Below, one piece after another: positions 9,778-33,350 of a DNA stretch of 33,350 nt. This DNA is from a virus, in the IMG/VR virus record IMGVR_UViG_3300045988_175829, positions 1 through 33,350 of that record, one strand, 5' to 3'. Positions within the stretch are counted from its first letter, which is position 1; each line of letters begins with the position of its first letter. A program made the position numbers and the translations under genes. Under the pieces are notes generated by a model. That model saw nothing but the letters and a program-made list of their open reading frames with translations. It was not told the origin of the DNA and ran no database searches.

Positions 9778-10227
9778 ATGCTTTACATGAGGGACTTCGA
9801 GCTGTTCGATGACGAGGGCATGGTGTGCGCCGAGCCGTTCGGCATGGAAGGCGCGACGTGCGGCGAGGACATGAACGACGCGGCGCTCATGGCCGCCGAG
9901 TGGCTGCGCATCCACGTGCTGGACGCATTGGGGCAAGGGAAGGAGTTCCCGCAGGGCAGCGTGGGAAACGAGCCGCGCCACGGCGGGAGGGTCATAACCG
10001 TGGCCGTGGAGGCGAGCCTGAACGACGTGCCCGCCATGACGGCGGCCGAGGCGGCGCGGGAGCTTGGGGTCAGCACCGCCCGCGTGGCGCAGCTCTGCGC
10101 CTCCGGCCAGCTCGACAGCTGGAAGGTCGGGGCCACCCGCATGGTGTCCGAGGACTCCGTGCTCATCCGCAAGATGGACGCGCCGAGAACCGGGCGGCCC
10201 GCCGAGCGCAAGGCCGCCATGGCGTAG
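9778..10227 (+). CDS. hicB: HicB-family antitoxin with a C-terminal HTH.
   Basis: RBS GGAGGACGAG. The N-terminal YMRDFELFDDEGMVCAEPFGM is HicB/UPF0150-like, and the C-terminal MTAAEAARELGVSTARVAQL is an HTH. It follows hicA directly. Confidence 0.75.
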   Translation: MLYMRDFELFDDEGMVCAEPFGMEGATCGEDMNDAALMAAEWLRIHVLDALGQGKEFPQGSVGNEPRHGGRVITVAVEASLNDVPAMTAAEAARELGVSTARVAQLCASGQLDSWKVGATRMVSEDSVLIRKMDAPRTGRPAERKAAMA

Positions 10228-10252
10228 CCGCGACCACATGCAGCGCAGCATA

Positions 10253-10282
10253 GGGGCATCCCTTCGGGGGTGCCCCTTTCTC
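10253..10282 (+). terminator. Putative rho-independent terminator after hicB.
   Basis: Hairpin GGGGCATCCC-TTCG-GGGGTGCCCC followed by TTTCTC. Confidence 0.5.
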
Positions 10283-10321
10283 ATGCCCCGGCTACCCTAC
10301 GGCCAGACGATAGGGGGAGAC

Positions 10322-10612
10322 ATGGCGGGCACGAAGTACGCGAACAACGGCAGCGCGAGGACCAAGCTGCGCAACAGGCTGAGGCAGGAGGGCAGGCCGT
10401 GCCACCTGTGCGGCCAGCCGATAGACTACGACCTGCCGAGCGGCGACCCGTGGAGCTTCGAGCTTGACCACGTTGTGCCCTTGGCTAGGGGCGGCGCGCC
10501 GTGGGACTACGCGAACGCGGCGGCCTCGCACCGCATCTGCAACCAGCGCAAGGGGAAAAAGATGCCGACGGACGGGCAGGCGTTCGAGATAAGGCGCACG
10601 AGGCTCTTCTAG
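10322..10612 (+). CDS. HNH endonuclease (terminase-associated).
   Basis: 96-aa ORF with RBS AGGGGGAGA. The motif CHLCGQP...ELDHVVPLARGG...NAAASHRICNQRKG is an HNH signature. Its position immediately upstream of terS is typical of HNH-dependent cos packaging. Confidence 0.8.
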   Translation: MAGTKYANNGSARTKLRNRLRQEGRPCHLCGQPIDYDLPSGDPWSFELDHVVPLARGGAPWDYANAAASHRICNQRKGKKMPTDGQAFEIRRTRLF

Positions 10613-10699
10613 GGCCTGTATGGCGCTGCACGGCACCGGGCTAGGCACGAGGGCATATCGTGGCCCAGGTGCGATTCTGTGGCGTTTGGCGGCGCTTCT

Positions 10700-10800
10700 G
10701 GATTGACGGGGGGCGTTACCCCTCCCCAGGGGCCGCTCGGCACCCCGCGGCGATATGCCAATATCCCCCCGAGGGTTTCCAGCAACAGGGGGGGGGTATC
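10700..10800. other. Candidate cos / packaging-initiation region between the HNH and terS genes.
   Basis: Non-coding stretch of about 225 bp containing G6, C4TC4, C6 and G9 runs, the inverted repeat GATAT-N4-ATATC, and a C6...G9 inverted pair flanking 17 nt (the sequence between C6 at 10765-10770 and G9 at 10788-10796). Confidence 0.4.
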
Positions 10801-10837
10801 TCACGCCCCGCCTACCATCCCTCCTGAAGGAGGAAGC

Positions 10838-11281
10838 ATGGTAGAGATTCCGCAGGACATAGCGCAGGACGCAGCCCAGGCCGCGATATGGTCCGAGCTG
10901 GTGGCCGATGACAGCCGATTCACGGAGCAGGACGTGCCCGCCCTGCGGCTGCTGTGCTTCTGGCACGCCGTGGCCATGGAGGCCCAGCGGCAGATGACCC
11001 ACAACGGGAAGATGGCGATATTCGACCCCATCGCCCTGAAGCCCTTCACCGACGCGAGCGGGAAGGCGCCGTTCATGGTGCGCAAGTCCCCCGCCCTCGC
11101 GGTGCTGAAGGAGGCCACGGCCGAGATTCGCGCCCTCTCGGACGCCCTCGGACTGACCCCTGCGGCCAGGAGCCGCATGGGCGCGGAGTCCAGACCCAAG
11201 CGCGACGGCGCGAAGGCGGAGTTTCTGACGCTGATGTTCAGCGACCGCGCCGAGAAGGAGCGCAAGGCGGCTGATGCCTAG
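10838..11281 (+). CDS. terS: Terminase small subunit (P27-like).
   Basis: ATG at 10838 with RBS GAAGGAGGAAGC. 147 aa. The C-terminal motif ALGLTPAARSRMG is typical of the P27 terS family, and the gene sits upstream of terL. Confidence 0.7.
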   Translation: MVEIPQDIAQDAAQAAIWSELVADDSRFTEQDVPALRLLCFWHAVAMEAQRQMTHNGKMAIFDPIALKPFTDASGKAPFMVRKSPALAVLKEATAEIRALSDALGLTPAARSRMGAESRPKRDGAKAEFLTLMFSDRAEKERKAADA

Positions 11282-12696
11282 TGGAGCCGAACCAGACGCC
11301 AACATACGAGGCGAACATCCCGGAGGACTTGACCGGTGACGGCGCGATGGCCGCTGAGCTTGCCGCCCTTTACTTCGGCGAGCCTATGCCCTGGCAACCG
11401 CACCTGCTGGATGTGATGCTCGCCCGCGACAGCCACGACAAGTTCGCGGCGCCCGAGGTGGGAATCTCCATCCCCCGCCAGAACGGCAAGAGCTTCATCG
11501 TGCGCGCCCGCTGCCTCTACGGCGCGCTGAACGGCGAGAAAATCCTATACACGTGCCACCACGGGGACACCTCGGACGAGATGTTCCAGGAGCTCTCCGC
11601 CATCTTCGAGGACGAGGAGAACGACGAACTGCACGACCTGCTGAAGCACGTCCGCAAGACCAACGGCAAGCAGGCGATCGTGCTGAAGAACGGCGGCTTG
11701 ATCCGCTTCACCACCCGCACCGACTCCGGCGGGCGCGGAAAGTCGTTCGACGTGCTCATCCTCGACGAGGCGCAGGAGCTCACCGACTCGCAGCAGGCCG
11801 CCCTGCTGCCGTCAATCAGCGCGGGGCCGAAGCACAACCCGCAGACCATCTACCTTGGCACCCCGCCTGACACGAAATGCACCGGCACCGTGTTCAGGAG
11901 CCTCCGCACCGACATCCGCAAGGGCGATTCGCTCATGGCGTGGGTCGAGTGGGGCGCTACCGAAGTGGGTGACAAGCACGACCGCGCACGATGGTACGAG
12001 TTCAACCCGAGCCTGGGAACCGTGCTGAGCGTGAAGGCCGTCGAATCGGAGTGCAACCAGATGCAGCCCGAGGTCTTCGCAAGGGAACGTCTGGGCTACT
12101 GGGCACCCACCGCAGGCGCGAAGCTGGCGTTGAACCCGGACGATTGGGCGAAGGCGTTGCGCGAGGAACCCATGGAGGACGGCAAGCTCAGCTTCGGCGT
12201 GAAGTTCGACCCCGATGGGGAGAAGGCCGCCATCTCGTGGGCATTGACGGAGCGCAACGGCGGTTCATACGTGGAGCTGTACGACATCACCGACGCCAGC
12301 ACCGGGCCGATAGCGGACATGCTGATCCGCAACGCCGACGAGATCGCCGCAGTGTTCATCGACGGCAAGGGCAAGACCGAGACGCTTGTGCAGAAGCTGA
12401 AGGACGGCCATTTCCCCGCCAAGGCGATCATGGCGGGCACCCCGGCCACCATGCAGGCCGCATCCGCGATGTTCAAGGACGAACTGGAAGCAGGGACGCT
12501 GACACACATCGAGTCACCGGCACTTGACGCGAGCGCCACCGGAAGCGTGAAGCGCGACATTGGCGGCAACGGCGGATGGGGCTTCGGCGATGGGGACGGG
12601 TGCATGTCCATCCCAGTTGAATCTGCGGCCGGAGCGCTGTATGCGGGCCGCACCACGAAACGAGAGCCAAGACGGCAACAGGAGGCGAACTTCTAA
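11281..12696 (+). CDS. terL: Terminase large subunit.
   Basis: Walker A is PRQNGKS and Walker B is VLILDEAQEL. 471 aa. The start may be the GTG at 11281, which overlaps the terS stop, or the ATG at 11347. Confidence 0.85.
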   Translation: MEPNQTPTYEANIPEDLTGDGAMAAELAALYFGEPMPWQPHLLDVMLARDSHDKFAAPEVGISIPRQNGKSFIVRARCLYGALNGEKILYTCHHGDTSDEMFQELSAIFEDEENDELHDLLKHVRKTNGKQAIVLKNGGLIRFTTRTDSGGRGKSFDVLILDEAQELTDSQQAALLPSISAGPKHNPQTIYLGTPPDTKCTGTVFRSLRTDIRKGDSLMAWVEWGATEVGDKHDRARWYEFNPSLGTVLSVKAVESECNQMQPEVFARERLGYWAPTAGAKLALNPDDWAKALREEPMEDGKLSFGVKFDPDGEKAAISWALTERNGGSYVELYDITDASTGPIADMLIRNADEIAAVFIDGKGKTETLVQKLKDGHFPAKAIMAGTPATMQAASAMFKDELEAGTLTHIESPALDASATGSVKRDIGGNGGWGFGDGDGCMSIPVESAAGALYAGRTTKREPRRQQEANF

Positions 12697-14123
12697 TGGA
12701 GAAGATAGAGATGGAAATCGTCGAGGGCATCTCCCGCGCGGACGGCCTCGCCGACGAGGACCGCGACACGGCGGTTAAGCTCATGCAGGTCTGGCGGCAG
12801 AAGAACGAGCGTAATCTGCTTAGGGAGAAGTACTACCTCGGCCACGTCCTGGTGCGTGACCTGGGAATCGCCATGCCCAAAAGCCTCGCGCAGAAGATCG
12901 ACCCGCGCATCGACTGGCCGCGCAAGGCCGTCCACGCGCTGGCCGACCGCAGCGTGCTCAACGGCTTCACGAGCGACGACGAGGCGGTCACAGAGGAGCT
13001 TCGTGACATCTACGCGGCCAACAGCCTCGATTTGCTCTACCGCAAGAACCTCATATGCGAGCTGAAGCACTGCTGCGGCTTCTGGACCGTCACCGACGAC
13101 GGCGGCGGCTACCCGGTCATCTCGGCGTATCCCGCCACTGCCGCGGCGGCGCTGTGGGACGACGCCCGCAAGGAGATCGAGGCCGGGCTGGTGGTCGCCG
13201 AGTCGAAGAAGATGCCGGGAGACACCGAGAGGGTGCCGACCGTGGTGCACCTGCTCACCGCAGACAGCCTAGTGGTTCTCACTCGGGTCGGTGGCTCATG
13301 GCGTGCGGAGTACCGCGAGCACTCCATGGGCAGATGCCTCATGGAGCCCATGGCCCACGGCGCCACCTTGGAGCGCCCCTTCGGGACCTCGCGCATCACC
13401 CGCGCCGTGATGAGCATCACGGACGACGCGATCAGGCAGCGTGCGCGCATGGAGGTGGCGGCGGAATCCGCCACGCTCCCGCAGATGTGGCTGCTCGGTA
13501 CCGACAAGCGCGTCACCAACGACGGCAACAGGTACTCCGCTTCCATGGGCGCCATCAACGAGGTGACGAAGGACCGCGACGGCGATGTGCCGACCGTCTG
13601 GCAGTCCTCGCAGCTCCAGATGGCACCGCTCACGGAGTACTTCAAGGCGCTCGCGTGCCAGATGAGCAGCGTGACAGACGTGCCGGTCTCGTTCTTCGGC
13701 GTGTCGAACGACAACCCCAGCTCTTCGGATGCCATCGCGGCATCTTTGGAGCCTTTGGTCATTGATGCCAAGAACCTGAACGCCGAGAACGGCCACGCCC
13801 TGCGTAACGTCGCCTATATGGCCCTGGCGGTGCTCCACGGCACCGACTTCGCCACGGAGCGAGACGCTGGCCACAACGTGAACGCCCGCTTCATGTCCCC
13901 GGCCTACCCCTCCGTCGTGAGCCAGAGCGACGCGATGCTCAAGCAGGCGCAGGCGTTCCCCAAGGTCGCGGCCTCGGACGTGGCGCTCGAGATGCTGGGC
14001 TACACCGACGAGCAGATGCAGCGCATCAACAGCGATTACAAGCGGGCGCAGGCCAACCAGGCGGTGCTCTCCCTGCTGACCCCGAAGGAGGACGGCGATG
14101 GAGATACCGCGCAGCCTGCTTAG
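12696..14123 (+). CDS. Portal protein (SPP1 gp6-like).
   Basis: 475 aa, immediately after terL (ATGA overlap). Motifs are portal-like and the gene sits in the canonical position. Confidence 0.8.
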   Translation: MEKIEMEIVEGISRADGLADEDRDTAVKLMQVWRQKNERNLLREKYYLGHVLVRDLGIAMPKSLAQKIDPRIDWPRKAVHALADRSVLNGFTSDDEAVTEELRDIYAANSLDLLYRKNLICELKHCCGFWTVTDDGGGYPVISAYPATAAAALWDDARKEIEAGLVVAESKKMPGDTERVPTVVHLLTADSLVVLTRVGGSWRAEYREHSMGRCLMEPMAHGATLERPFGTSRITRAVMSITDDAIRQRARMEVAAESATLPQMWLLGTDKRVTNDGNRYSASMGAINEVTKDRDGDVPTVWQSSQLQMAPLTEYFKALACQMSSVTDVPVSFFGVSNDNPSSSDAIAASLEPLVIDAKNLNAENGHALRNVAYMALAVLHGTDFATERDAGHNVNARFMSPAYPSVVSQSDAMLKQAQAFPKVAASDVALEMLGYTDEQMQRINSDYKRAQANQAVLSLLTPKEDGDGDTAQPA

Positions 14124-15357
14124 CGAGCTGACGGATGCCGTCAACGCCCTGTCGGCATCGGCGCAGGCGCTGGCGGCTACCGCGCTCGACGAGATATTCA
14201 AGGAGTGGGACGGCTCAGACGTGACGGGGCTGCGCGTCGAGTGCATAGAGGCCTTGGAGGCCATCGAGAGCGTCTATTGCGACACCTACGCAGCGGGCAG
14301 GGCGGCGGAGTTCTACGAGGGCTGCAGGGCGGCGCAGGGCGTGCGCGGTGCCTACAGCGCCATCGCCGATTCCAGGCGCGACCCGCAGGCGCTTGCCGGT
14401 GCCGTGAGGGCCATGGTCCAGTACGTGGTCGACGGGGACACGGACAGGTACCGGCGCGAGTGCCTTTCGAGGATTGACGCGGACGTGCGGCGCTCCGCCA
14501 ACAGCTGCGTCGCCTACAACACCCGGCGCGACCCGAAGAAGCCGCGATATGCCCGTGTGCCCACCGGCGGCGAGACGTGCGGCTTCTGCCTCATGCTTTC
14601 CAGCTTCGGCTTCCACTACACCACGGAGGAGGCCGCGGGCCACGCGCACGATGGCTGCGACTGCCGCGTGGTGCCCAACTTCGGCAAGGCATCCGTGAAG
14701 GGCTACGACTCCGACGGCATGTATTCGCGCTACCAGGACGTTCTGGAAACCTTGGGCGGGCGCGACGGCATCCGCGCGGAGTGGGACGCGCTGCCCAAGG
14801 AGGAGCGCGAGGCGTACATCGCCAGCCACGGCAAGAAGGAGGGCGCGGCCTTCCAGAAGTACATGAACAAGCGCATGGTCGAGGAGATCGAGCTACGAGA
14901 CCCGAAGTGGTACGCAACGGGAGAACATTCCGGAATCGAGTTTGCCGGTTCTACCGTGAAAGATGAGAAGCTAAAGCGTTGGAGGCAATACCCCGGTGAG
15001 AGAATCACCGCCGAGAAAATAAACGCACTTGGTTACAAGACGGAGTTCTGGGAGGACGAGTCGCATTTGGCGGCTCCGAACGCGGATGGGAAAACGACGA
15101 TCAGCCGAGCTGACCTGTCCACAGGCATCGAGCTAAAGACGATCTACGGGGCAGGGTCTGAGAACACGTTCAAGTCCCACATCAAGTCGATATCAGGGAA
15201 GAACGGCGTGAAGCTCACTGTCGTCGACGTGAGCGAAAATGAAAAGGTTACAGACGAGCAGGCGATCAAGTGGATCAACAAGTACATGGCCCGCTATCAC
15301 ATCAGCGAAGTAAGGATGCTCGGGCACGATGGGAAACTATTGCGCATAAAGAAATAG
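14098..15357 (+). CDS. Head morphogenesis protein (MuF / SPP1 gp7-like) carrying an additional low-GC C-terminal domain of about 150 aa.
   Basis: RBS GAAGGAGG. The MuF-like core includes GETCGFC...DGCDCRVVP. The C-terminal portion, roughly 14900-15357, has a visibly lower GC and is unrelated to MuF. Confidence 0.7.
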   Translation: MEIPRSLLSELTDAVNALSASAQALAATALDEIFKEWDGSDVTGLRVECIEALEAIESVYCDTYAAGRAAEFYEGCRAAQGVRGAYSAIADSRRDPQALAGAVRAMVQYVVDGDTDRYRRECLSRIDADVRRSANSCVAYNTRRDPKKPRYARVPTGGETCGFCLMLSSFGFHYTTEEAAGHAHDGCDCRVVPNFGKASVKGYDSDGMYSRYQDVLETLGGRDGIRAEWDALPKEEREAYIASHGKKEGAAFQKYMNKRMVEEIELRDPKWYATGEHSGIEFAGSTVKDEKLKRWRQYPGERITAEKINALGYKTEFWEDESHLAAPNADGKTTISRADLSTGIELKTIYGAGSENTFKSHIKSISGKNGVKLTVVDVSENEKVTDEQAIKWINKYMARYHISEVRMLGHDGKLLRIKK

Positions 15358-15433
15358 CCAGCGGCTGCATGTCTCTATAGGTGAGTCAAACAACCTGCTG
15401 GCTAACCCGATTATAACCGCAAAAAGCAGCAAG

Positions 15434-15456
15434 GGCCACCTACGGGTGGCCTTTTT
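15434..15456 (+). terminator. Rho-independent terminator after the MuF gene.
   Basis: GGCCACC-TACG-GGTGGCC followed by TTTTT. Confidence 0.75.
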
Positions 15457-15497
15457 CATGCAGAATCTCACGCTCATAGGACACTACCATGCGACAG

Positions 15498-15566
15498 GGC
15501 CGCACGGCCCGAAACGCACATCTAAGGGGCTTGGCCGCACGGCCTGCCCGACGGGCCGCACGGTCC
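15498..15566. repeat. Three direct copies of GGCCGCACGG(C/T)C upstream of the scaffold gene.
   Basis: Copies at 15498-15511, 15534-15545 and 15553-15566, read directly. They lie between a terminator and the scaffold start. Confidence 0.6.
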
Positions 15567-15581
15567 GGGAAAGGACGCGAC

Positions 15582-16061
15582 ATGGCAGACCAGAGCGCAA
15601 CGGAACCCGCACAAGGCACGGAGCCGGCCCAGGAGCCGGCCAGCGGCACGGAACCCGACTACAAGGCGCTTTACGAGGCGGCGAAGGCGAATTCGCGCAA
15701 GTGGGAGAAGCAGGCCAAGGCCAACAAGGGCGCAGCATCGGCTCTGGACGAGGCAAACGAGGCGAAGAAGAGCGCCGACGAGAAGATCGCGGAGCTAGAG
15801 AAGCGACTCGACGCCAAGGAGAAGGCCGAGCGGCGCGCGAAGGTCGCAGCCAAGGTCGCGCAAGAGAAGGGCGTTCCCGCCGACCTGATCGTCGGCGACG
15901 ACGAGGAGAGCATGGCCGAATGGGCCGACAAGATGCTCGCCGCGTTCAAGAAGAAGCCCGCGCCGTCCGTGCAGAAGCCCGGCAGCTTCGCCAAGGACGA
16001 CGGCAAGGACCGAACGGAGCTGCGCGACTTCGCGTCGGCGCTCCTGGGCAACAAGCAATAG
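15582..16061 (+). CDS. Capsid scaffolding protein.
   Basis: ATG at 15582 with RBS GGGAAAGGA. 159-aa acidic and Lys-rich coiled-coil protein, immediately upstream of the major capsid gene. Confidence 0.65.
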   Translation: MADQSATEPAQGTEPAQEPASGTEPDYKALYEAAKANSRKWEKQAKANKGAASALDEANEAKKSADEKIAELEKRLDAKEKAERRAKVAAKVAQEKGVPADLIVGDDEESMAEWADKMLAAFKKKPAPSVQKPGSFAKDDGKDRTELRDFASALLGNKQ

Positions 16062-28447: not shown

Positions 28448-28582
28448 ATGGCAGAGGAGACGCAGGAGCTGACGCAAGAGCAGTACGAAGCGCTCAAGCG
28501 CGCGCTCAGCTGGAACGGCGGCCAGGGTTACGACGGGGACGGCCCTGACGATGATTTCGAACCCGTGGAGGTGGATTACTGA
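28448..28582 (+). CDS. Small acidic hypothetical protein, 45 aa.
   Basis: ATG at 28448 with RBS AAGGAGGTCTAGGC. It lies between the holin and endolysin genes. Confidence 0.35.
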   Translation: MAEETQELTQEQYEALKRALSWNGGQGYDGDGPDDDFEPVEVDY

Positions 28583-29451
28583 TGGCGACGGCAAAACAGG
28601 TCCTCGCCCGCGAGGCCGCCGAGATCGGCTACAGCCGCTGGGACGATCCCGAGCAGGGCACGAAGTACGGTCGATGGTTCGCAGAGCTTGTCGGTTCCCC
28701 GTGGTTCGGCGCGAACGGCGTTGCCTTCTGCGCGATGGGCCAGTCCTATTGCTTCCATGCCGTAGGCCAGAAGGCCCCGGGTCTCCCCACGGCTGGCTGC
28801 GGAGACGTGCGCCGCGCCGCGCTGTCGGCGAAGCGCGTTGTCAACAAGGCTGCGGCGAAGCCCGGTGACCTCGTACTGTTCCGCTGGGACAAGCGCACGG
28901 ATGACCTCTCGTACTCCGACCACATCGGCATCGTGGAGGTCAATTTCGGCAAGTCCTACCAGACCATCGAGTTCAACACCAACGGGGGCCGCGTCGCGCG
29001 CCGCGTGCGCAGCCTCGACGTGGTTCAGCTCGTGGTGCGCCCCGAGTACGACGGAGACACCGGCTCCGGCTCCGATTCGCTGCCAGTCAAGCTCCAAGTG
29101 GACGGCATCTGGGGCCGCGCGACCACGCTGCGCATCCAGGAAGTGCTGGGCGCACCGTACAGGGACGGCGAGATCAGCCGCCAGAACTCCGCCTGGAAGT
29201 CCATCAGCCGTGGCTGCGGCACCGGCTGGGAGTGGGTCGCGGGCGGCGAGGAACCCGGCTCGCAGACCATCAAGCTCATGCAGCAGCGCATCGGTGCCAC
29301 GCCCGATGGTTTCGTAGGACCGAACACATGGAACCGCTTGATTCGCTACTACCAGGCAGCGAGCGGCGCGACCGAGCTGGACGGCCGCATCGACTGCCCG
29401 TCCATCACCGTGAAGGCGATGCAGCGCGCGCTCAATGAAGGACGCTTCTAA
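28582..29451 (+). CDS. Endolysin: an N-terminal CHAP peptidase domain plus C-terminal peptidoglycan-binding repeats.
   Basis: 289 aa. The CHAP Cys and His residues are present (FCAMGQSYCF ... SDHIGIV), and the C-terminal repeats are PG_binding-like (GIWGRATTLRIQEVLG, GFVGPNTWNRLIRY). Confidence 0.8.
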   Translation: MATAKQVLAREAAEIGYSRWDDPEQGTKYGRWFAELVGSPWFGANGVAFCAMGQSYCFHAVGQKAPGLPTAGCGDVRRAALSAKRVVNKAAAKPGDLVLFRWDKRTDDLSYSDHIGIVEVNFGKSYQTIEFNTNGGRVARRVRSLDVVQLVVRPEYDGDTGSGSDSLPVKLQVDGIWGRATTLRIQEVLGAPYRDGEISRQNSAWKSISRGCGTGWEWVAGGEEPGSQTIKLMQQRIGATPDGFVGPNTWNRLIRYYQAASGATELDGRIDCPSITVKAMQRALNEGRF

Positions 29452-29454
29452 CAG

Positions 29455-29492
29455 AAACCCCTCCCCGCTACGGCGGGGAGGGGTTTCTTCTG
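29455..29492 (+). terminator. Terminator after the lysis cassette.
   Basis: Long hairpin AAACCCCTCCCCG-CTAC-GGCGGGGAGGGGTTT followed by a T-rich tract. Confidence 0.7.
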
Positions 29493-29537
29493 GACCTATC
29501 TTGTACCTAAGTTGCTGAAGTTCTCCCCCACCTGGCG

Positions 29538-29577
29538 ATTGCCAAATAATTGCCATTCTTGCCAAAAATTGCCAAAA
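29538..29577. repeat. Four direct TTGCCA repeats at about 10-bp spacing. These are a candidate attP arm-type integrase binding site array.
   Basis: The copies are ATTGCCAAAT, ATTGCCATTC, CTTGCCAAAA and ATTGCCAAAA. The array lies between the lysis genes and int in an AT-rich stretch. Confidence 0.5.
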
Positions 29578-29611
29578 ATACAGGGCGTTTCAGGGCATCC
29601 CAGTAAAAAGA

Positions 29612-29650
29612 AAACGTCCCCTGAGCTGCGATAACTCAGGGGACGCATCA
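29612..29650 (-). terminator. Rho-independent terminator downstream of the truncated int gene on the minus strand.
   Basis: Hairpin CCCCTGAG-N9-CTCAGGGG. On the minus strand it is followed by TTTTCTTTTT. Confidence 0.65.
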
Positions 29651-29652
29651 TT

Positions 29653-30369
29653 TCAACTGGCGGAGAGCTGGGGGTAGGTCCCGCGCACCGTGAGCTCGCG
29701 CCGCGCGAGGTCGACGTCCTCCCAGCGCAGGGCGAGCACCTCGCCCTTGCGCAGCCCCTCGCACAGCCCGATCACGCAGATGCGCTCGACGCACGAGCCC
29801 GGCTGCGTCTCGCGCAGGAGGCCCAGCAGGCGCATATGCTCGGCGAAGGTGGTGAGCCACACGACGCCGCGCTCGGGGTCGGCCGCGCCGTCGCCGGGAT
29901 AGGTGTAGCGAAACGACGCGGGGTTCACGGGAATCATGCCCATCTCGACGGCGCACCCCAGCACCGAGGACAGCGTCTCGCGGGCGTTGGTCGCCGTCTT
30001 TCGCGTGGGGCACCCCGATATCATGCGCTGTATGTTCAGCTTGTTTATCTGCTCGAGCTCCATGTTGCCCAGCGCGGGCAGGATGCGCCTCCTGAGGTCG
30101 CGCTCGTAGCCCTGCCTCGTGTTCGCGCGCAGCCCCGCCTTCTGCGGCCAGTACACCTCGTCGACGAACTCCGCCAGCGTGATGCGCGCCGTGACGCGCC
30201 CGCGCAGGCGCTCCTTCTCCATGAGCAGGCGGGTCTCCGCCTTGCGGGCCTGCCCCTTGGTCGGGTACGTCTCCACGCGCCTGTCGCGCGAGCCGTCCCA
30301 CTTGACGCCGACCGTGACGTCGGCCGCCCACTTGCCGCTCTTCAGCTTCCGGACCGCCATGATGTACAA
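29653..30369 (-). pseudogene. int: Tyrosine integrase truncated after 238 aa. The arm-binding (AP2-like) and core-binding domains are present, but the catalytic domain stops just after the first conserved Arg.
   Basis: The sequence runs through the N-terminal arm-type DNA-binding region and the core-binding SAM-like domain. It ends ...GLRKGEVLALRWEDVDLARRELTVRGTYPQLSAS-stop, lacking the HxxR, second Arg, His/Trp and Tyr nucleophile. A stop is followed directly by a terminator. Confidence 0.7.
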
Positions 30370-30456
30370 TCACCTTGCCTTCCGTGTATTCGGTTGGTAC
30401 TTGCATGGCCTCGCGCAGGGTTGCAGCCCGTATGCGCGGGGCCTATTTTCGTCTGC

Positions 30457-31299
30457 CTAGGCCCTCTCGACCCAATCGGGCACCTTGACGCCCGGTCCGG
30501 CGATGAGCAGCTCCCTCCCCACCTTCGCGGACGCCGCGCTGTAGCCCACGTCGATGAGGTACCTGTCGAAGTCCCCGTAGATCTCGGATATGAGCGGCAC
30601 GTTGTCGTAGGTGACCATCCAGGGGAACCCGCAGCCGGCTATCTTCCCGGCGACCTCCCTGTGGTCGTCCTCGGTGTACGAGTTCTCGTACAGGCCCGGC
30701 CCCTTCACGACGTACGGCGGGTCGAAGTTGGCGAACAGCCCGTCCTCTCGCGCGAGGACGGACGAGATGAACTCGCAGGCGTCCATGTTGTACAGGTCGA
30801 TATCCGCCGAGCGGGCGGCGATCGCGCGCACCTTGTCGCAGAGCGGCCCCTTGTTGAAGCGCTCCGAGATGCCGAACTTGCCCTTCTGGGACATGCCTCC
30901 GATCGGGCCGCCGTGCAGTATGCCCGACCTGTTCGCCCTGTTCAGGTAGAAGGCCGCCTTGCCGAGCTCGAGCGATGGGGCGCTGGAGGACAGGTAGACC
31001 TCGCGCTGGGCCTTCCACTCGGGGATGCCCAGCTCCGCGCCCTCGATGAACGCGCACAGCTCGTCCGGGTGGTTCACTATCGCGTCCCACATGCTGTACA
31101 CGGCAGGGTCGATGTCGTTCAGGATCACCCTGGAGACGCGCCCGCGCAGCAGCAGCTTCATGGCCAGGCCCGCCCCGCCGCAGTACGCCTCTGCGTAGGT
31201 GCAGCCCCCGAGGCCGCTCTCGGCGATGATGGAGTCCACCAGCGGGTATATCTTCGATTTGCCGCCGGGGTACCTGATCGGCGTGTATGTCGTCGGCAT
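30457..31299 (-). CDS. Dam-family (D12 class) N6-adenine DNA methyltransferase.
   Basis: 280 aa. N-terminal SAM motif IRYPGGKSK and catalytic motif FDPPY are present. RBS GAGGAGGTG. Confidence 0.85.
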   Translation of the reverse strand: MPTTYTPIRYPGGKSKIYPLVDSIIAESGLGGCTYAEAYCGGAGLAMKLLLRGRVSRVILNDIDPAVYSMWDAIVNHPDELCAFIEGAELGIPEWKAQREVYLSSSAPSLELGKAAFYLNRANRSGILHGGPIGGMSQKGKFGISERFNKGPLCDKVRAIAARSADIDLYNMDACEFISSVLAREDGLFANFDPPYVVKGPGLYENSYTEDDHREVAGKIAGCGFPWMVTYDNVPLISEIYGDFDRYLIDVGYSAASAKVGRELLIAGPGVKVPDWVERA

Positions 31300-31332
31300 C
31301 GGCGCACCTCCTCTCGCTGTGCAGCTCCTAGG

Positions 31333-32979
31333 TTACTCGCTGTCGGCCCTCTTGGCCATAGGCAAGATCTGAGCGCCGACGCGCTTCGCCACGGTGTTGT
31401 ACGCCCTCATGAAATCCCCGACGAAGGCATCCGCTTCCGAACGGTTGTCGTTCACCCAGTGCTCGACAACTCTGGCCCGCTCGAAGGTGCGCTCATAGCG
31501 TCTAAACCAGTGCTTGTACATATTGCGCTTGGTCTCACCCGGATACATGTCTTCGGGGGCGCTCTCGACCAGATTCTCCCAAGACACCCCAACCGCACCG
31601 AGGTCCTCCCACAGGGGACTTCCATCGGTTGGCCTCTTGGACAAGTAATCCCATAAGAGGCTCTCTGGTCGCTTCTCGCCAGGGAGAAACACTATGTTTC
31701 CTCCGCTTTCTCTTACCGCCGGGGGAATTTTGCCATCTATTTCTTCGACCGTGACGTCACCGTCGAAGACAACGACCTTCTCCCTGAAATACGAAAAGTC
31801 ACCCGCATAGAGACTCGCAATCTGCTTGCACCCAAGGGAAACGTCGAGAAAGTCCGAGTTGTCAACCACCTCAGGACGCAACACGTCGAGCAGCTCCCTT
31901 AGGAGCCAGCGGGCTTCGGCATCCTCGGTGAACACTCCGATACGCCTAGTACTGAGAGCGGGATTGGAGACATAGAGTCCGTTCTCGAGATTTGACCACG
32001 ACGAGTTTCTCATCGACCTAAGCTTGCCGTTGACGCACGACAGGTACGCGACCTCGACGCCTCCGGGCGAGGAGGTGGGATTGTACTGGTTCTTTTCGCT
32101 CAACTCCCTGAGGATCACCGTGCTGTGGGTGGTGAACACGACCTGGAACCCGCACGCTTTCGATTCATCCAGGAGGAGTTTGAGGAGCCTCTGCTGCGCC
32201 GCCGGATGGAGCGACGCGTCGACCTCGTCGATGAGGAGAAGGCCGCCGTCCCAGTCGCCGCCCATCTCGTCCCTCAGCTTCTTGAAGGAGAGGACCGCGA
32301 GGAGAATCTGACCCAAGTTGTCCTGACCGGACGAGTTCGCCATCGGCCCATAGGTGTCAGTCTCGACCCCGGTGCCGCTCTTCAATGAAATCCCCGTGAT
32401 TGACAGGCTGCTCAGGGACCTGATCGGTTCATGGATGCTCAGGATTCTCGAATAGTTCTCGTTGAACCACTCCTCGTCCGCAGCGTCTCCCCACCGACGG
32501 TTCTTCGCCGTGACCGTGATGGAGCCGTTGCCCGGCTCGCGGTCCGGGTCGACCAGCACGTGGCTGCCCTCGGGTATGACGCGGTCCATGCAGTCGCCCT
32601 CGACCTCGAGCGCGAAGGCGCGCGGATGCGAGGCGAGCACCGAGGCCGGCACCTCGACGCGGTGGGAGACCTCCTCCTCGTCGGTCAGCGCGCCGGCGTG
32701 CACGCGCCCGATCGCGAGCAGCGGCACGGTCGCGGAGGACGCGGTCACGGGCATGGCTCCGGAGGGGACGGAAGAGCCCTCGGGTTCATCGTCGATAATC
32801 TCGCCCTTGTTTATTCCAAAGTAGTCGGCAATTGCCTGAACGGCACCCATTCGAGGAACCGCTCGATCATTCTCCCGTTGAGAAACAGCCATCGAAGAAA
32901 CGTCGGCAATCTTGCCAAACTCGTCTTGGGTAAGACCGTGGGCATTTCTGATTCGCCTGATATTCGAACCTATACTCAT
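31333..32979 (-). CDS. CI/LexA-like repressor (XRE HTH plus S24 autopeptidase domain) fused in frame to an OLD-family ATPase C-terminal half and a Toprim nuclease domain.
   Basis: The ATG at 32979 is preferred over the GTG at 32988 because of RBS GAGAGGTG. N-terminal HTH: IRRIRNAHGLTQDEFGKIADVSSMAVSQRE. Linker: VPLLAIGRVHAG-ALTD, LexA-like with Ala-Gly. S24 core: EVEGDCM ... VLVDPDREPGNGSITVTAKN. ABC signature SSGQDNLGQILLAVL, Walker B LLLIDEVDASLHP and H-loop VVFTTHS follow, with no Walker A anywhere. The Toprim-like E in GVFTEDAEA and DxD in VVVFDGD follow those. Confidence 0.75.
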   Translation of the reverse strand: MSIGSNIRRIRNAHGLTQDEFGKIADVSSMAVSQRENDRAVPRMGAVQAIADYFGINKGEIIDDEPEGSSVPSGAMPVTASSATVPLLAIGRVHAGALTDEEEVSHRVEVPASVLASHPRAFALEVEGDCMDRVIPEGSHVLVDPDREPGNGSITVTAKNRRWGDAADEEWFNENYSRILSIHEPIRSLSSLSITGISLKSGTGVETDTYGPMANSSGQDNLGQILLAVLSFKKLRDEMGGDWDGGLLLIDEVDASLHPAAQQRLLKLLLDESKACGFQVVFTTHSTVILRELSEKNQYNPTSSPGGVEVAYLSCVNGKLRSMRNSSWSNLENGLYVSNPALSTRRIGVFTEDAEARWLLRELLDVLRPEVVDNSDFLDVSLGCKQIASLYAGDFSYFREKVVVFDGDVTVEEIDGKIPPAVRESGGNIVFLPGEKRPESLLWDYLSKRPTDGSPLWEDLGAVGVSWENLVESAPEDMYPGETKRNMYKHWFRRYERTFERARVVEHWVNDNRSEADAFVGDFMRAYNTVAKRVGAQILPMAKRADSE

Positions 32980-33083
32980 GGCTTGCACCTCTCGAACGCT
33001 AAATTCTTTTTACATTATAAGAAAAAGGTTCTTTACATTCACTGTATGTTCACCTATAGTCTTAATCATCGAAAGGAGGTCAG
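32980..33083. promoter_or_regulatory. AT-rich divergent switch region between the repressor-fusion gene and the cro-like gene. It holds the two TTTACATT operator-like repeats and the cro-side -35/-10 hexamers.
   Basis: TTTACATT lies at about 33009-33016 and 33032-33039. TTTACA, 17 bp, TATAGT (33032-33060) precedes the cro RBS GAAAGGAGG. The region is about 30% GC, against about 65% for the genome. Confidence 0.55.
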
Positions 33084-33278
33084 ATGGAACTCATCGAAGC
33101 TCGCAAAAAGGAGCGATACACGCAGCAGCAAGTGGCTGATTATCTAGGTATATCCCGCATTACATATGCAAAGATGGAAAAGAACCCTGGCGACATCACC
33201 CTTGACAATGCGCGTAAGCTCGCCACTCTTTTCAAGGTTGATGTGCGCGATATTTTTTTCCCTACAAGCGATAGTTAA
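33084..33278 (+). CDS. cro: Cro-like XRE-family HTH regulator.
   Basis: 64 aa with YTQQQVADYLGISRITYAKMEKN as the HTH. It is divergent from the repressor gene and has a strong RBS. Confidence 0.75.
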   Translation: MELIEARKKERYTQQQVADYLGISRITYAKMEKNPGDITLDNARKLATLFKVDVRDIFFPTSDS

Positions 33279-33350
33279 TATAGTTCAAAAGGAGACCCAA
33301 AGATGCCCATCAACGTGGACCAGGCGGTGACCGCGTCGGTCATGGCGAAG

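Follow-up and report, generated by a model that had tools for sequence, protein, structure and literature searches.

What is the single open reading frame (ORF) at the cI position of the viral contig IMGVR_UViG_3300045988_175829, which begins like a prophage repressor and ends like an OLD-family ATPase-nuclease, and is it a functional fusion or the remains of two genes? The ORF occupies positions 31333 to 32979 of the minus strand of this 33,350-nucleotide (nt) IMG/VR record, the whole of which was analyzed and is called the window here (coordinates without a locus name refer to it), and encodes 548 amino acids (aa) from an ATG start or 551 aa from an upstream GTG. An earlier note had read the product as a self-cleaving repressor that releases a Toprim nuclease, with a decayed OLD-like gene recombined into cI as the fallback. 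The comparisons with intact relatives argue for a form of the fallback. With a probability that we put at about 0.82, the ORF is a deletion chimera that joins the front of cI to the back of the ATPase-Toprim gene downstream, a scar and not an evolved architecture.

Much of what the earlier note had said about the position and motifs of the ORF was confirmed. The ORF lies in the CI position, divergent from cro across an AT-rich intergenic region (40 to 45% GC), and Pfam placed an HTH_3 helix-turn-helix (HTH) domain at residues 7 to 59 (32803 to 32961; E = 2.3e-9, over the cut-off). The ABC signature SSGQ (residues 216 to 219, 32323 to 32334), the Walker B motif LLLIDE (residues 247 to 252, 32224 to 32241), and the H-loop TTHS (residues 283 to 286, 32122 to 32133) all fall inside AAA_21 or AAA_15 matches and are invariant in 65 homologues. 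These matches were limited to the C-terminal ends of the models (AAA_21, residues 216 to 290, profile positions 239 to 303 of 304; AAA_15, residues 195 to 289, profile positions 291 to 373 of 374), so the chimera has the signature, Walker B, and H-loop but no Walker A; Pfam detected no P-loop or Walker A in it, as the earlier note had also stated. The matches of PADLOC and NCBIfam were confined to the Walker B/signature stretch and the HTH. The repressor-derived part, by contrast, was shorter and less canonical than the 200 aa previously assigned to it. As delimited by Pfam and by DNA comparison with the repressor of the related locus L001, it spans 32518 to 32979 on the minus strand (codons 1 to 154, ending ...REPGNGSI) and contains HTH_3, a linker with Ala-Gly at residues 95 and 96, and the first ~65 residues of an S24-like domain, with a Peptidase_S24 match at residues 90 to 158 that covers only profile positions 3 to 72 of 116. 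The ATPase-derived part, delimited by Pfam and by identity to the homologous proteins P0002 and P0003, spans 31333 to 32517 on the minus strand (codons 155 to 548 plus the stop) and consists of an ABC-type nucleotide-binding domain reduced to its C-terminal half and, at residues ~300 to 548 (31336 to 32082), a Toprim-like domain, which carries the acidic residues E352 and D406-G-D408.

Both halves were traced to intact genes (related loci are numbered L001 onward, and homologous proteins have P-numbers). In a search of 5.8 billion proteins, the closest homologues of the chimera were stand-alone ATPases of 530 to 565 aa (AAA_15/AAA_23/SMC_N/AAA_21) with 97 to 98% identity over only ~72% of the query; no fused HTH-S24-ATPase architecture was among the matches listed, none of which covered more than 79% of the query. 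Residues 155 to 548 were 97 to 98% identical to residues 155 to 548 of the intact 548-aa ATPases P0002 and P0003, and in the alignment the identity started exactly at T155-V-T-A-K. Across the breakpoint the intact ATPases read ...GETVDTVTAKNRRWGD..., also quoted as ...YPVGETVDTVTAKNRRWGDAADEEW...; TVTAK, previously taken as the site of the catalytic-type Lys of the S24 core, is therefore ATPase sequence. The GNNGTGKS Walker A motif of the intact proteins lies near residue 30, within the segment 1 to 154 that the window has lost. At the other end, residues 1 to 154 of the chimera were 80% identical to an intact 212-aa repressor (L004, 8001 to 8639), and the 120 best homologues of that repressor were all HTH-plus-S24 proteins of 169 to 226 aa, none of them fused. 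An exact-product look-up found no record of the 548-aa product. That the chimera is exactly as long as the parental ATPase (548 aa) was considered as a sign of a designed swap, which was rejected; both breakpoints happen to fall at about codon 155, so the equality is a coincidence.

At the DNA level, the window tracks the L001 repressor as far as the junction, which reads ...GGCTCCATC joined to ACGGTCACG..., with 1 nt of microhomology. A three-way comparison with L001 7440 to 7530 (repressor) and L001 8085 to 8175 (ATPase) placed this deletion junction, ATC/ACGGT, at 32513 to 32520 on the minus strand. In codons, the window reads ...GGC TCC ATC joined to ACG GTC ACG GCG AAG..., where ATC (I154) is the last repressor codon and ACG (T155) the first ATPase codon. 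Beyond this point the L001 repressor reads on as ...ATC GCG GTG GTC GAG..., and before it the L001 ATPase has ...GTG GAC; the parental sequences have one C in common at the junction, followed by an imperfect CGGT. The DNA absent from the window relative to L001 amounts to 649 bp, and the deletion took ~60 aa from the repressor C terminus (the last part of S24) and 154 aa from the ATPase N terminus (the P-loop), leaving flanks that are 97% identical to the intact genes. The cI and ATPase genes of L001 lie in different reading frames, so that a 649-bp deletion (3n+1) joins them in frame, an outcome with a chance of 1 in 3. The ORF is thus a fusion of two adjacent genes by deletion, in which both functional cores are incomplete.

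The gene order that such a deletion presupposes was seen in related prophages of Collinsella, the host. Metagenome-assembled genome (MAG) loci L004 and L007 carry the intact 212-aa repressor with a near-identical cro, and the L004 repressor matches Peptidase_S24 over profile positions 3 to 116 of 116. In related Collinsella prophages, cI and the ATPase gene are 3 to 4 bp apart, and the order is cI, ATPase, D12 methyltransferase, and integrase. The loci with the closest ATPase, L001 to L003, have cro on the opposite strand, an HTH-plus-S24 repressor of 211 to 221 aa, a 4-bp gap, the ATPase, MethyltransfD12, Fic, a 367-aa integrase, and then host genes. In L001, L003, L009 to L012, and L016, cI and the ATPase gene stand apart as separate genes, with order and strand unchanged, ahead of the same methyltransferase gene, and ATPase copies at 75 to 90% identity likewise stood in prophage lysogeny modules as repressor, ATPase (sometimes with one gene between), and MethyltransfD12. 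The arrangement that the earlier note had set against a fusion, a normal repressor separate from a full-length OLD-like gene, therefore exists in the relatives; in the window the intervening DNA is gone. The parent would have been a Collinsella siphovirus integrating at tRNA-Ser, with cI (~212 aa), a spacer of 3 to 4 bp, the 548-aa OLD-like gene, the D12 methyltransferase gene, and the integrase gene. An illegitimate deletion of about 649 bp at the level of microhomology cost cI ~180 bp at its 3' end and the ATPase gene ~462 bp at its 5' end, and a second deletion in the same genome took out half of attP and the catalytic domain of the integrase. The fallback was essentially right, the recombination taking the form of an in-frame ~649-bp deletion between genes that are intact and separate in relatives.

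The junction was unique in the collections searched. A scan of IMG/VR found no relatives of the chimera, a scan of species-representative genomes returned only stand-alone repressors (in Collinsella MAGs) and one unrelated ATPase without any fusion, and megablast of 29000 to 33350 against a phage collection gave no match. The junction 22-mer had 16 matches in JGI metagenomes and 1 in IMG/VR, which were chance matches of 22 to 24 nt without flanking homology, except for two short, weak extensions (37 to 61 nt at 79 to 86% identity). Such uniqueness would also be expected if the cI-ATPase join and a second one at the integrase and att site were errors of assembly or sequencing, absent from real molecules whose true genes are complete, and the source, a metagenome-style contig with a 99-nt terminal overlap and two unusual joins inside 3 kb, gives this explanation some footing. 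De Bruijn assemblers, however, join sequences via overlaps of about k-1 bases, and the joins here share only 1 to 5 nt. Furthermore, tblastn found no copy of the lost ATPase N-terminal half, S24 C-terminal end, or integrase C-terminal half elsewhere in the window, the contig is circular with a coherent gene order, and similar natural lesions occur in relatives (an ATPase nonsense codon in L001 to L003 and 6.8-kb prophage remnants). We regard an artefact as very unlikely.

Whether the truncated repressor could still act as an SOS sensor was judged by alignment with Escherichia coli LexA. RVHAG/A of the chimera aligns with LexA RVAAG/E, so that by sequence the Ala-Gly pair corresponds to LexA Ala84-Gly85 and the putative cleavage site seen earlier in the linker stands. 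At the nucleophile position, GDCM (32590 to 32601) aligns with LexA GMSM, with Cys in place of Ser119, and the equivalent of LexA Lys156 lies inside the deleted segment and is Arg in the intact close relatives examined (AVMRRW). The earlier claim of a canonical autocleavable S24 core accordingly failed on three counts: the nucleophile position holds Cys, the base residue is deleted, and ~60 residues are gone. Of the 120 proteins most similar to the intact repressor, 117 carry G-x-C-M and at least 92 carry VMRRWYRG, so the parental family is itself a noncanonical Cys/Arg variant. As an observation in its own right, this Collinsella prophage repressor family (L004 8001 to 8639; P0121 to P0240) has a conserved Cys/Arg version of the S24 Ser/Lys dyad. 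LexA mutants S119C and K156R retain some autodigestion, and the intact Cys/Arg family may still cleave; the chimera, without the base residue and a third of the S24 fold, should not. It resembles repressors of the LexA and lambda CI type in its N-terminal HTH, its Ala-Gly linker, the start of an S24-like beta domain, and its position divergent from cro, and it differs from them in a domain that is ~60 aa short, Cys for Ser, a deleted Lys equivalent, and the foreign sequence fused to it.

The ATPase half was examined through an AlphaFold model of the intact ATPase P0002 (65 sequences; predicted local distance difference test [pLDDT] of 87). Its best Foldseek matches in the PDB were GajA, Thermus scotoductus OLD, and the retron-Eco8 OLD-type effector (E = 1e-13 to 1e-11 over 540 to 670 columns), with low template modeling (TM) scores of ~0.3, as expected if the domains are differently oriented. 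A separate model of window residues 296 to 548 had a pLDDT of 87 (93 to 98 from model residue ~50 onward), and its top 14 matches were all Toprim regions of GajA or OLD; against the isolated OLD C-terminal regions 6nk8 and 6njv, the probability was 0.91 to 0.96, with E-values of only 0.017 to 0.2. E352-D353 and D406-G-D408 were invariant across the 65 homologues. Searches with Pfam, PADLOC, NCBIfam, and PDB profiles did not detect a Toprim domain, and all of them matched the ATPase part only. The Toprim module named in the earlier note therefore received moderate support from fold searches and from its invariant E352 and D406-G-D408 and none from sequence profiles, which makes the assignment of the C-terminal domain probable but not proven.

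The closest characterized systems were compared with both the parental gene and the window copy. Class 1 OLD proteins (P2 Old, T. scotoductus OLD 6P74, and Vibrio cholerae OLD) share with the parental gene an ABC ATPase plus a Toprim-like domain, a similar size, and a place among prophage accessory genes beside the immunity region, and the whole parental model matched GajA and 6P74 at E = 1e-13 to 4e-12. They differ in that they are described as single genes (PMC10568477), whereas a D12 methyltransferase gene accompanies the parental one in every locus examined, and in that the Toprim domain of the parental family is undetectable by sequence profiles; the window copy, in addition, is without residues 1 to 154, including Walker A. 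Gabija GajA, a class 2 OLD protein, was the best structural match of the parental protein (8x5i, 8u7i, and 8sm3) and also of the C-terminal domain alone (8jq9 and 8x5i), but the sequence identity was 12 to 13% and the PADLOC GajA models matched the Walker B region only. No GajB/UvrD-like helicase neighbor was found in the window or in 14 related loci, where cI or other genes lay upstream and MethyltransfD12 downstream.

These comparisons bear on the possibility that the fusion works as a tethered effector, that is, an SOS-sensing repressor whose RecA-stimulated self-cleavage frees a Toprim nuclease for abortive infection or exclusion of superinfecting phage. The parts that such a device would display are there: an HTH, an Ala-Gly linker, and a residue at the nucleophile position, an intact Toprim-like domain with invariant acidic residues, and an ORF in frame at the cI position. 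The parts that would make it work are not, since the S24 fold breaks off near profile position 66 to 72 of 116 and has lost its base residue, the Lys of TVTAK belongs to the ATPase, and the P-loop half is gone. Walker A is required in vivo in P2 Old (PMC10568477) and in V. cholerae OLD (PMC12392090). The architecture was also absent among the listed best homologues of both halves and in the genome and viral scans, and the junction carries the marks of a recent deletion between neighboring genes, with flanks 97% identical to the intact copies. This headline reading of the earlier note, which has against it a truncated S24 with Cys for Ser and no base, a missing P-loop, and no listed fused homologue, is in our judgment exceedingly improbable.

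A further alternative is a residual or new function for the chimera. The HTH would bind operators, and the half ATPase with the Toprim-like domain would serve as an oligomerization module in place of S24, and the result would be either a repressor that is noninducible or weak or an immunity factor with a dominant-negative effect. In favor of this are the undamaged HTH and cro/operator region, the in-frame join (a 1-in-3 outcome), and the fact that OLD-family proteins oligomerize (PMC10568477). Solved OLD structures, however, dimerize via a domain inserted in the ABC ATPase (PMC10568477), and the ATPase core of the chimera is several strands short; the strands and P-loop helix at residues 2 to 142 of the P0002 model are absent from it. 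The fusion occurs in none of the relatives listed, so there is no sign of selection, and the integrase/att deletion favors loss of lysogeny over a refined form of it. Both this function and the outcomes named for it are unlikely.

The deletion chimera remains the preferred reading, and several points weigh against it. The exact parent, with a cI of this immunity type directly upstream of this ATPase gene, was not recovered, and its layout is deduced from relatives that differ in the N-terminal region of cI. An in-frame fusion that still follows the cI promoter region is probably expressed as a protein, for which HTH-only activity or residual Toprim activity is conceivable. In addition, the evidence for the junction comes from the assembled contig, and the phage is putatively virulent, judging by its gene content. 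A chimera that is not inert, acting as an HTH-targeted, noninducible protein with a new oligomerization or nuclease function at the operators or marking early domain shuffling toward a repressor-tethered nuclease, is nevertheless highly improbable.

What the product of a deletion chimera would lack follows from its composition. The S24-like fold of LexA and lambda CI normally supplies dimerization and the catalytic base. The product would keep an intact HTH without the C-terminal third of the S24-like domain and without the P-loop half of the ATPase, and so, with the S24 part of the argument drawn by analogy, it should not self-cleave, repress cooperatively, or act as an ATP-dependent nuclease.

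The second deletion affected integration. The window retains a truncated tyrosine integrase gene (29653 to 30369, minus strand) that encodes 238 aa, compared with 367 to 373 aa in relatives (intact in L004 and L036); its Phage_integrase match covered profile positions 31 to 58 of 172 only and was below threshold, with nearly all of the catalytic domain gone. Homology to every relative ends at 29668, and in the junction (29656 to 29673, minus strand) integrase codon ~231 is joined at CCCAG (29668 to 29673), a 5-nt match, to the 3' 18 nt of the att core. This core was defined via relatives, no tRNA gene having been found in the window, as the 31-nt direct repeat at L001 5947 to 5977 and 12750 to 12780, the 3' end of tRNA-Ser(GCT); the left 13 nt of the core and the P arm are missing from the window. 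The endpoint within the att core could reflect aberrant Int-mediated recombination or a plain illegitimate deletion. The 138-bp segment at 29536 to 29673 was considered as a mobile repeat and rejected; it is the phage arm adjoining the att core.

Apart from these two lesions, the genome appeared whole. The first 99 nt of the window equal the last 99 nt (1 to 99 and 33252 to 33350), which indicates that the contig is a complete circle with 33,251 unique bases, and the siphovirus gene set is complete (RusA, Erf, large terminase, portal, protease, major head, major tail, tape measure, tail proteins, and endolysin). The endolysin gene (28582 to 29451, plus strand; PHROGs), which ends the series of late genes, adjoins the att remnant and integrase gene, the arrangement of an excised phage form. 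A sibling phage, L036 (IMGVR_UViG_3300045988_146123), was 97% identical over 11 kb of late genes and 95 to 98% identical in late and early genes, and its locus 10001 to 15742 holds the endolysin gene, att region, HicAB-like genes, a 373-aa integrase gene, accessory genes, a complete repressor gene, and cro. L036 also carries a DUF3800-like accessory gene, and its repressor is of a different immunity type from that of the window. The length recorded for the L036 contig, 33,350, equals that of the window even though their sequences are not the same, which is taken to be coincidental.

Taken together, the two deletions point to a lysogeny-defective phage of temperate descent that is probably either obligately lytic or the product of aberrant excision. 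The nearest described parallel is Streptococcus thermophilus phage TP-778L, which was propagated lytically and has only a truncated integrase after aberrant excision (PMC3952083). Like the window, it is an excised-form genome with an otherwise complete gene set (PMC3952083); in the window, however, a 5-nt match links the integrase to the middle of the att core, without recombination with a second integrase copy, and a second deletion lies in cI and the accessory defense gene. The locus adds one more case to a familiar type of event and presents no new architecture. The chimera is a one-off deletion product that should not be cataloged as a "repressor-Toprim" fusion family or as a defense system, and it is a cautionary example, in that the junction motif ITVTAKNRRW mimics the VTVKRL region of S24 and an in-frame scar comes to resemble a designed multidomain protein. 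It also records lysogeny loss in a gut temperate phage through two small, nearly homology-free deletions, one hitting repression and the other integration. Three side leads may be worth more than the chimera: the Cys/Arg S24 variant, the pairing of the OLD-like ATPase with a D12 methyltransferase, and the repeated inactivation of the ATPase with the methyltransferase kept.

The methyltransferase gene of the window (30457 to 31299, minus strand; Pfam MethyltransfD12) encodes an intact D12-class N6-adenine DNA methyltransferase and has the same neighbor in related loci. In every locus examined (window 30457 to 32517, L001, and L009 to L018), the ATPase/Toprim-like gene is directly followed by it; in L013, an ATPase homologue at 46% identity lies outside a prophage and still has MethyltransfD12 directly downstream. 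The two genes may form an uncharacterized, restriction-modification-like prophage defense cassette, an idea that is more plausibly novel than a functional chimera; in a nonexhaustive search of the literature, no account of such a pairing between an OLD-type gene and a D12 methyltransferase came to light. In L001 (7968 to 7970) and also in L003, the ATPase gene was inactivated independently by a nonsense codon at position 101 (CAG to TAA) with the methyltransferase gene intact, and L002 encodes the same 437-aa ATPase fragment. Together with the deletion in the window, this suggests repeated loss of the ATPase with the methylase kept.

The immunity region stood out in composition. Between the chimera and the cro-like HTH gene (33084 to 33278, plus strand; 64 aa; Pfam HTH_3, near-identical to cro of L004), a promoter scan marked a promoter-like site at 33032 to 33060. 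Within 32900 to 33350, cro and the operator region have 40 to 45% GC, compared with 62 to 72% elsewhere in the genome, and the HTH-coding part of cI is intermediate (about 51%); the region may come from a lower-GC source or be compositionally constrained.

Finally, reduced and rearranged lysogeny modules were seen among the relatives. A 6.8-kb element at tRNA-Ser in L001 (5947 to 12780), bounded by the 31-nt att repeat, contains only a 149-aa gene, cro, cI, the nonsense-mutant ATPase gene, and the methyltransferase, Fic, and integrase genes; it looks like a prophage remnant reduced to its lysogeny module, and L005 and L006 have similar layouts. Imperfect direct repeats of 45 nt, 78% identical, lie on either side of the L001 Fic gene (10198 to 10242 and 11516 to 11560). 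The window has one copy of this repeat (30405 to 30470) and lacks Fic, as would fit an accessory gene that is gained or lost by recombination between the repeats.

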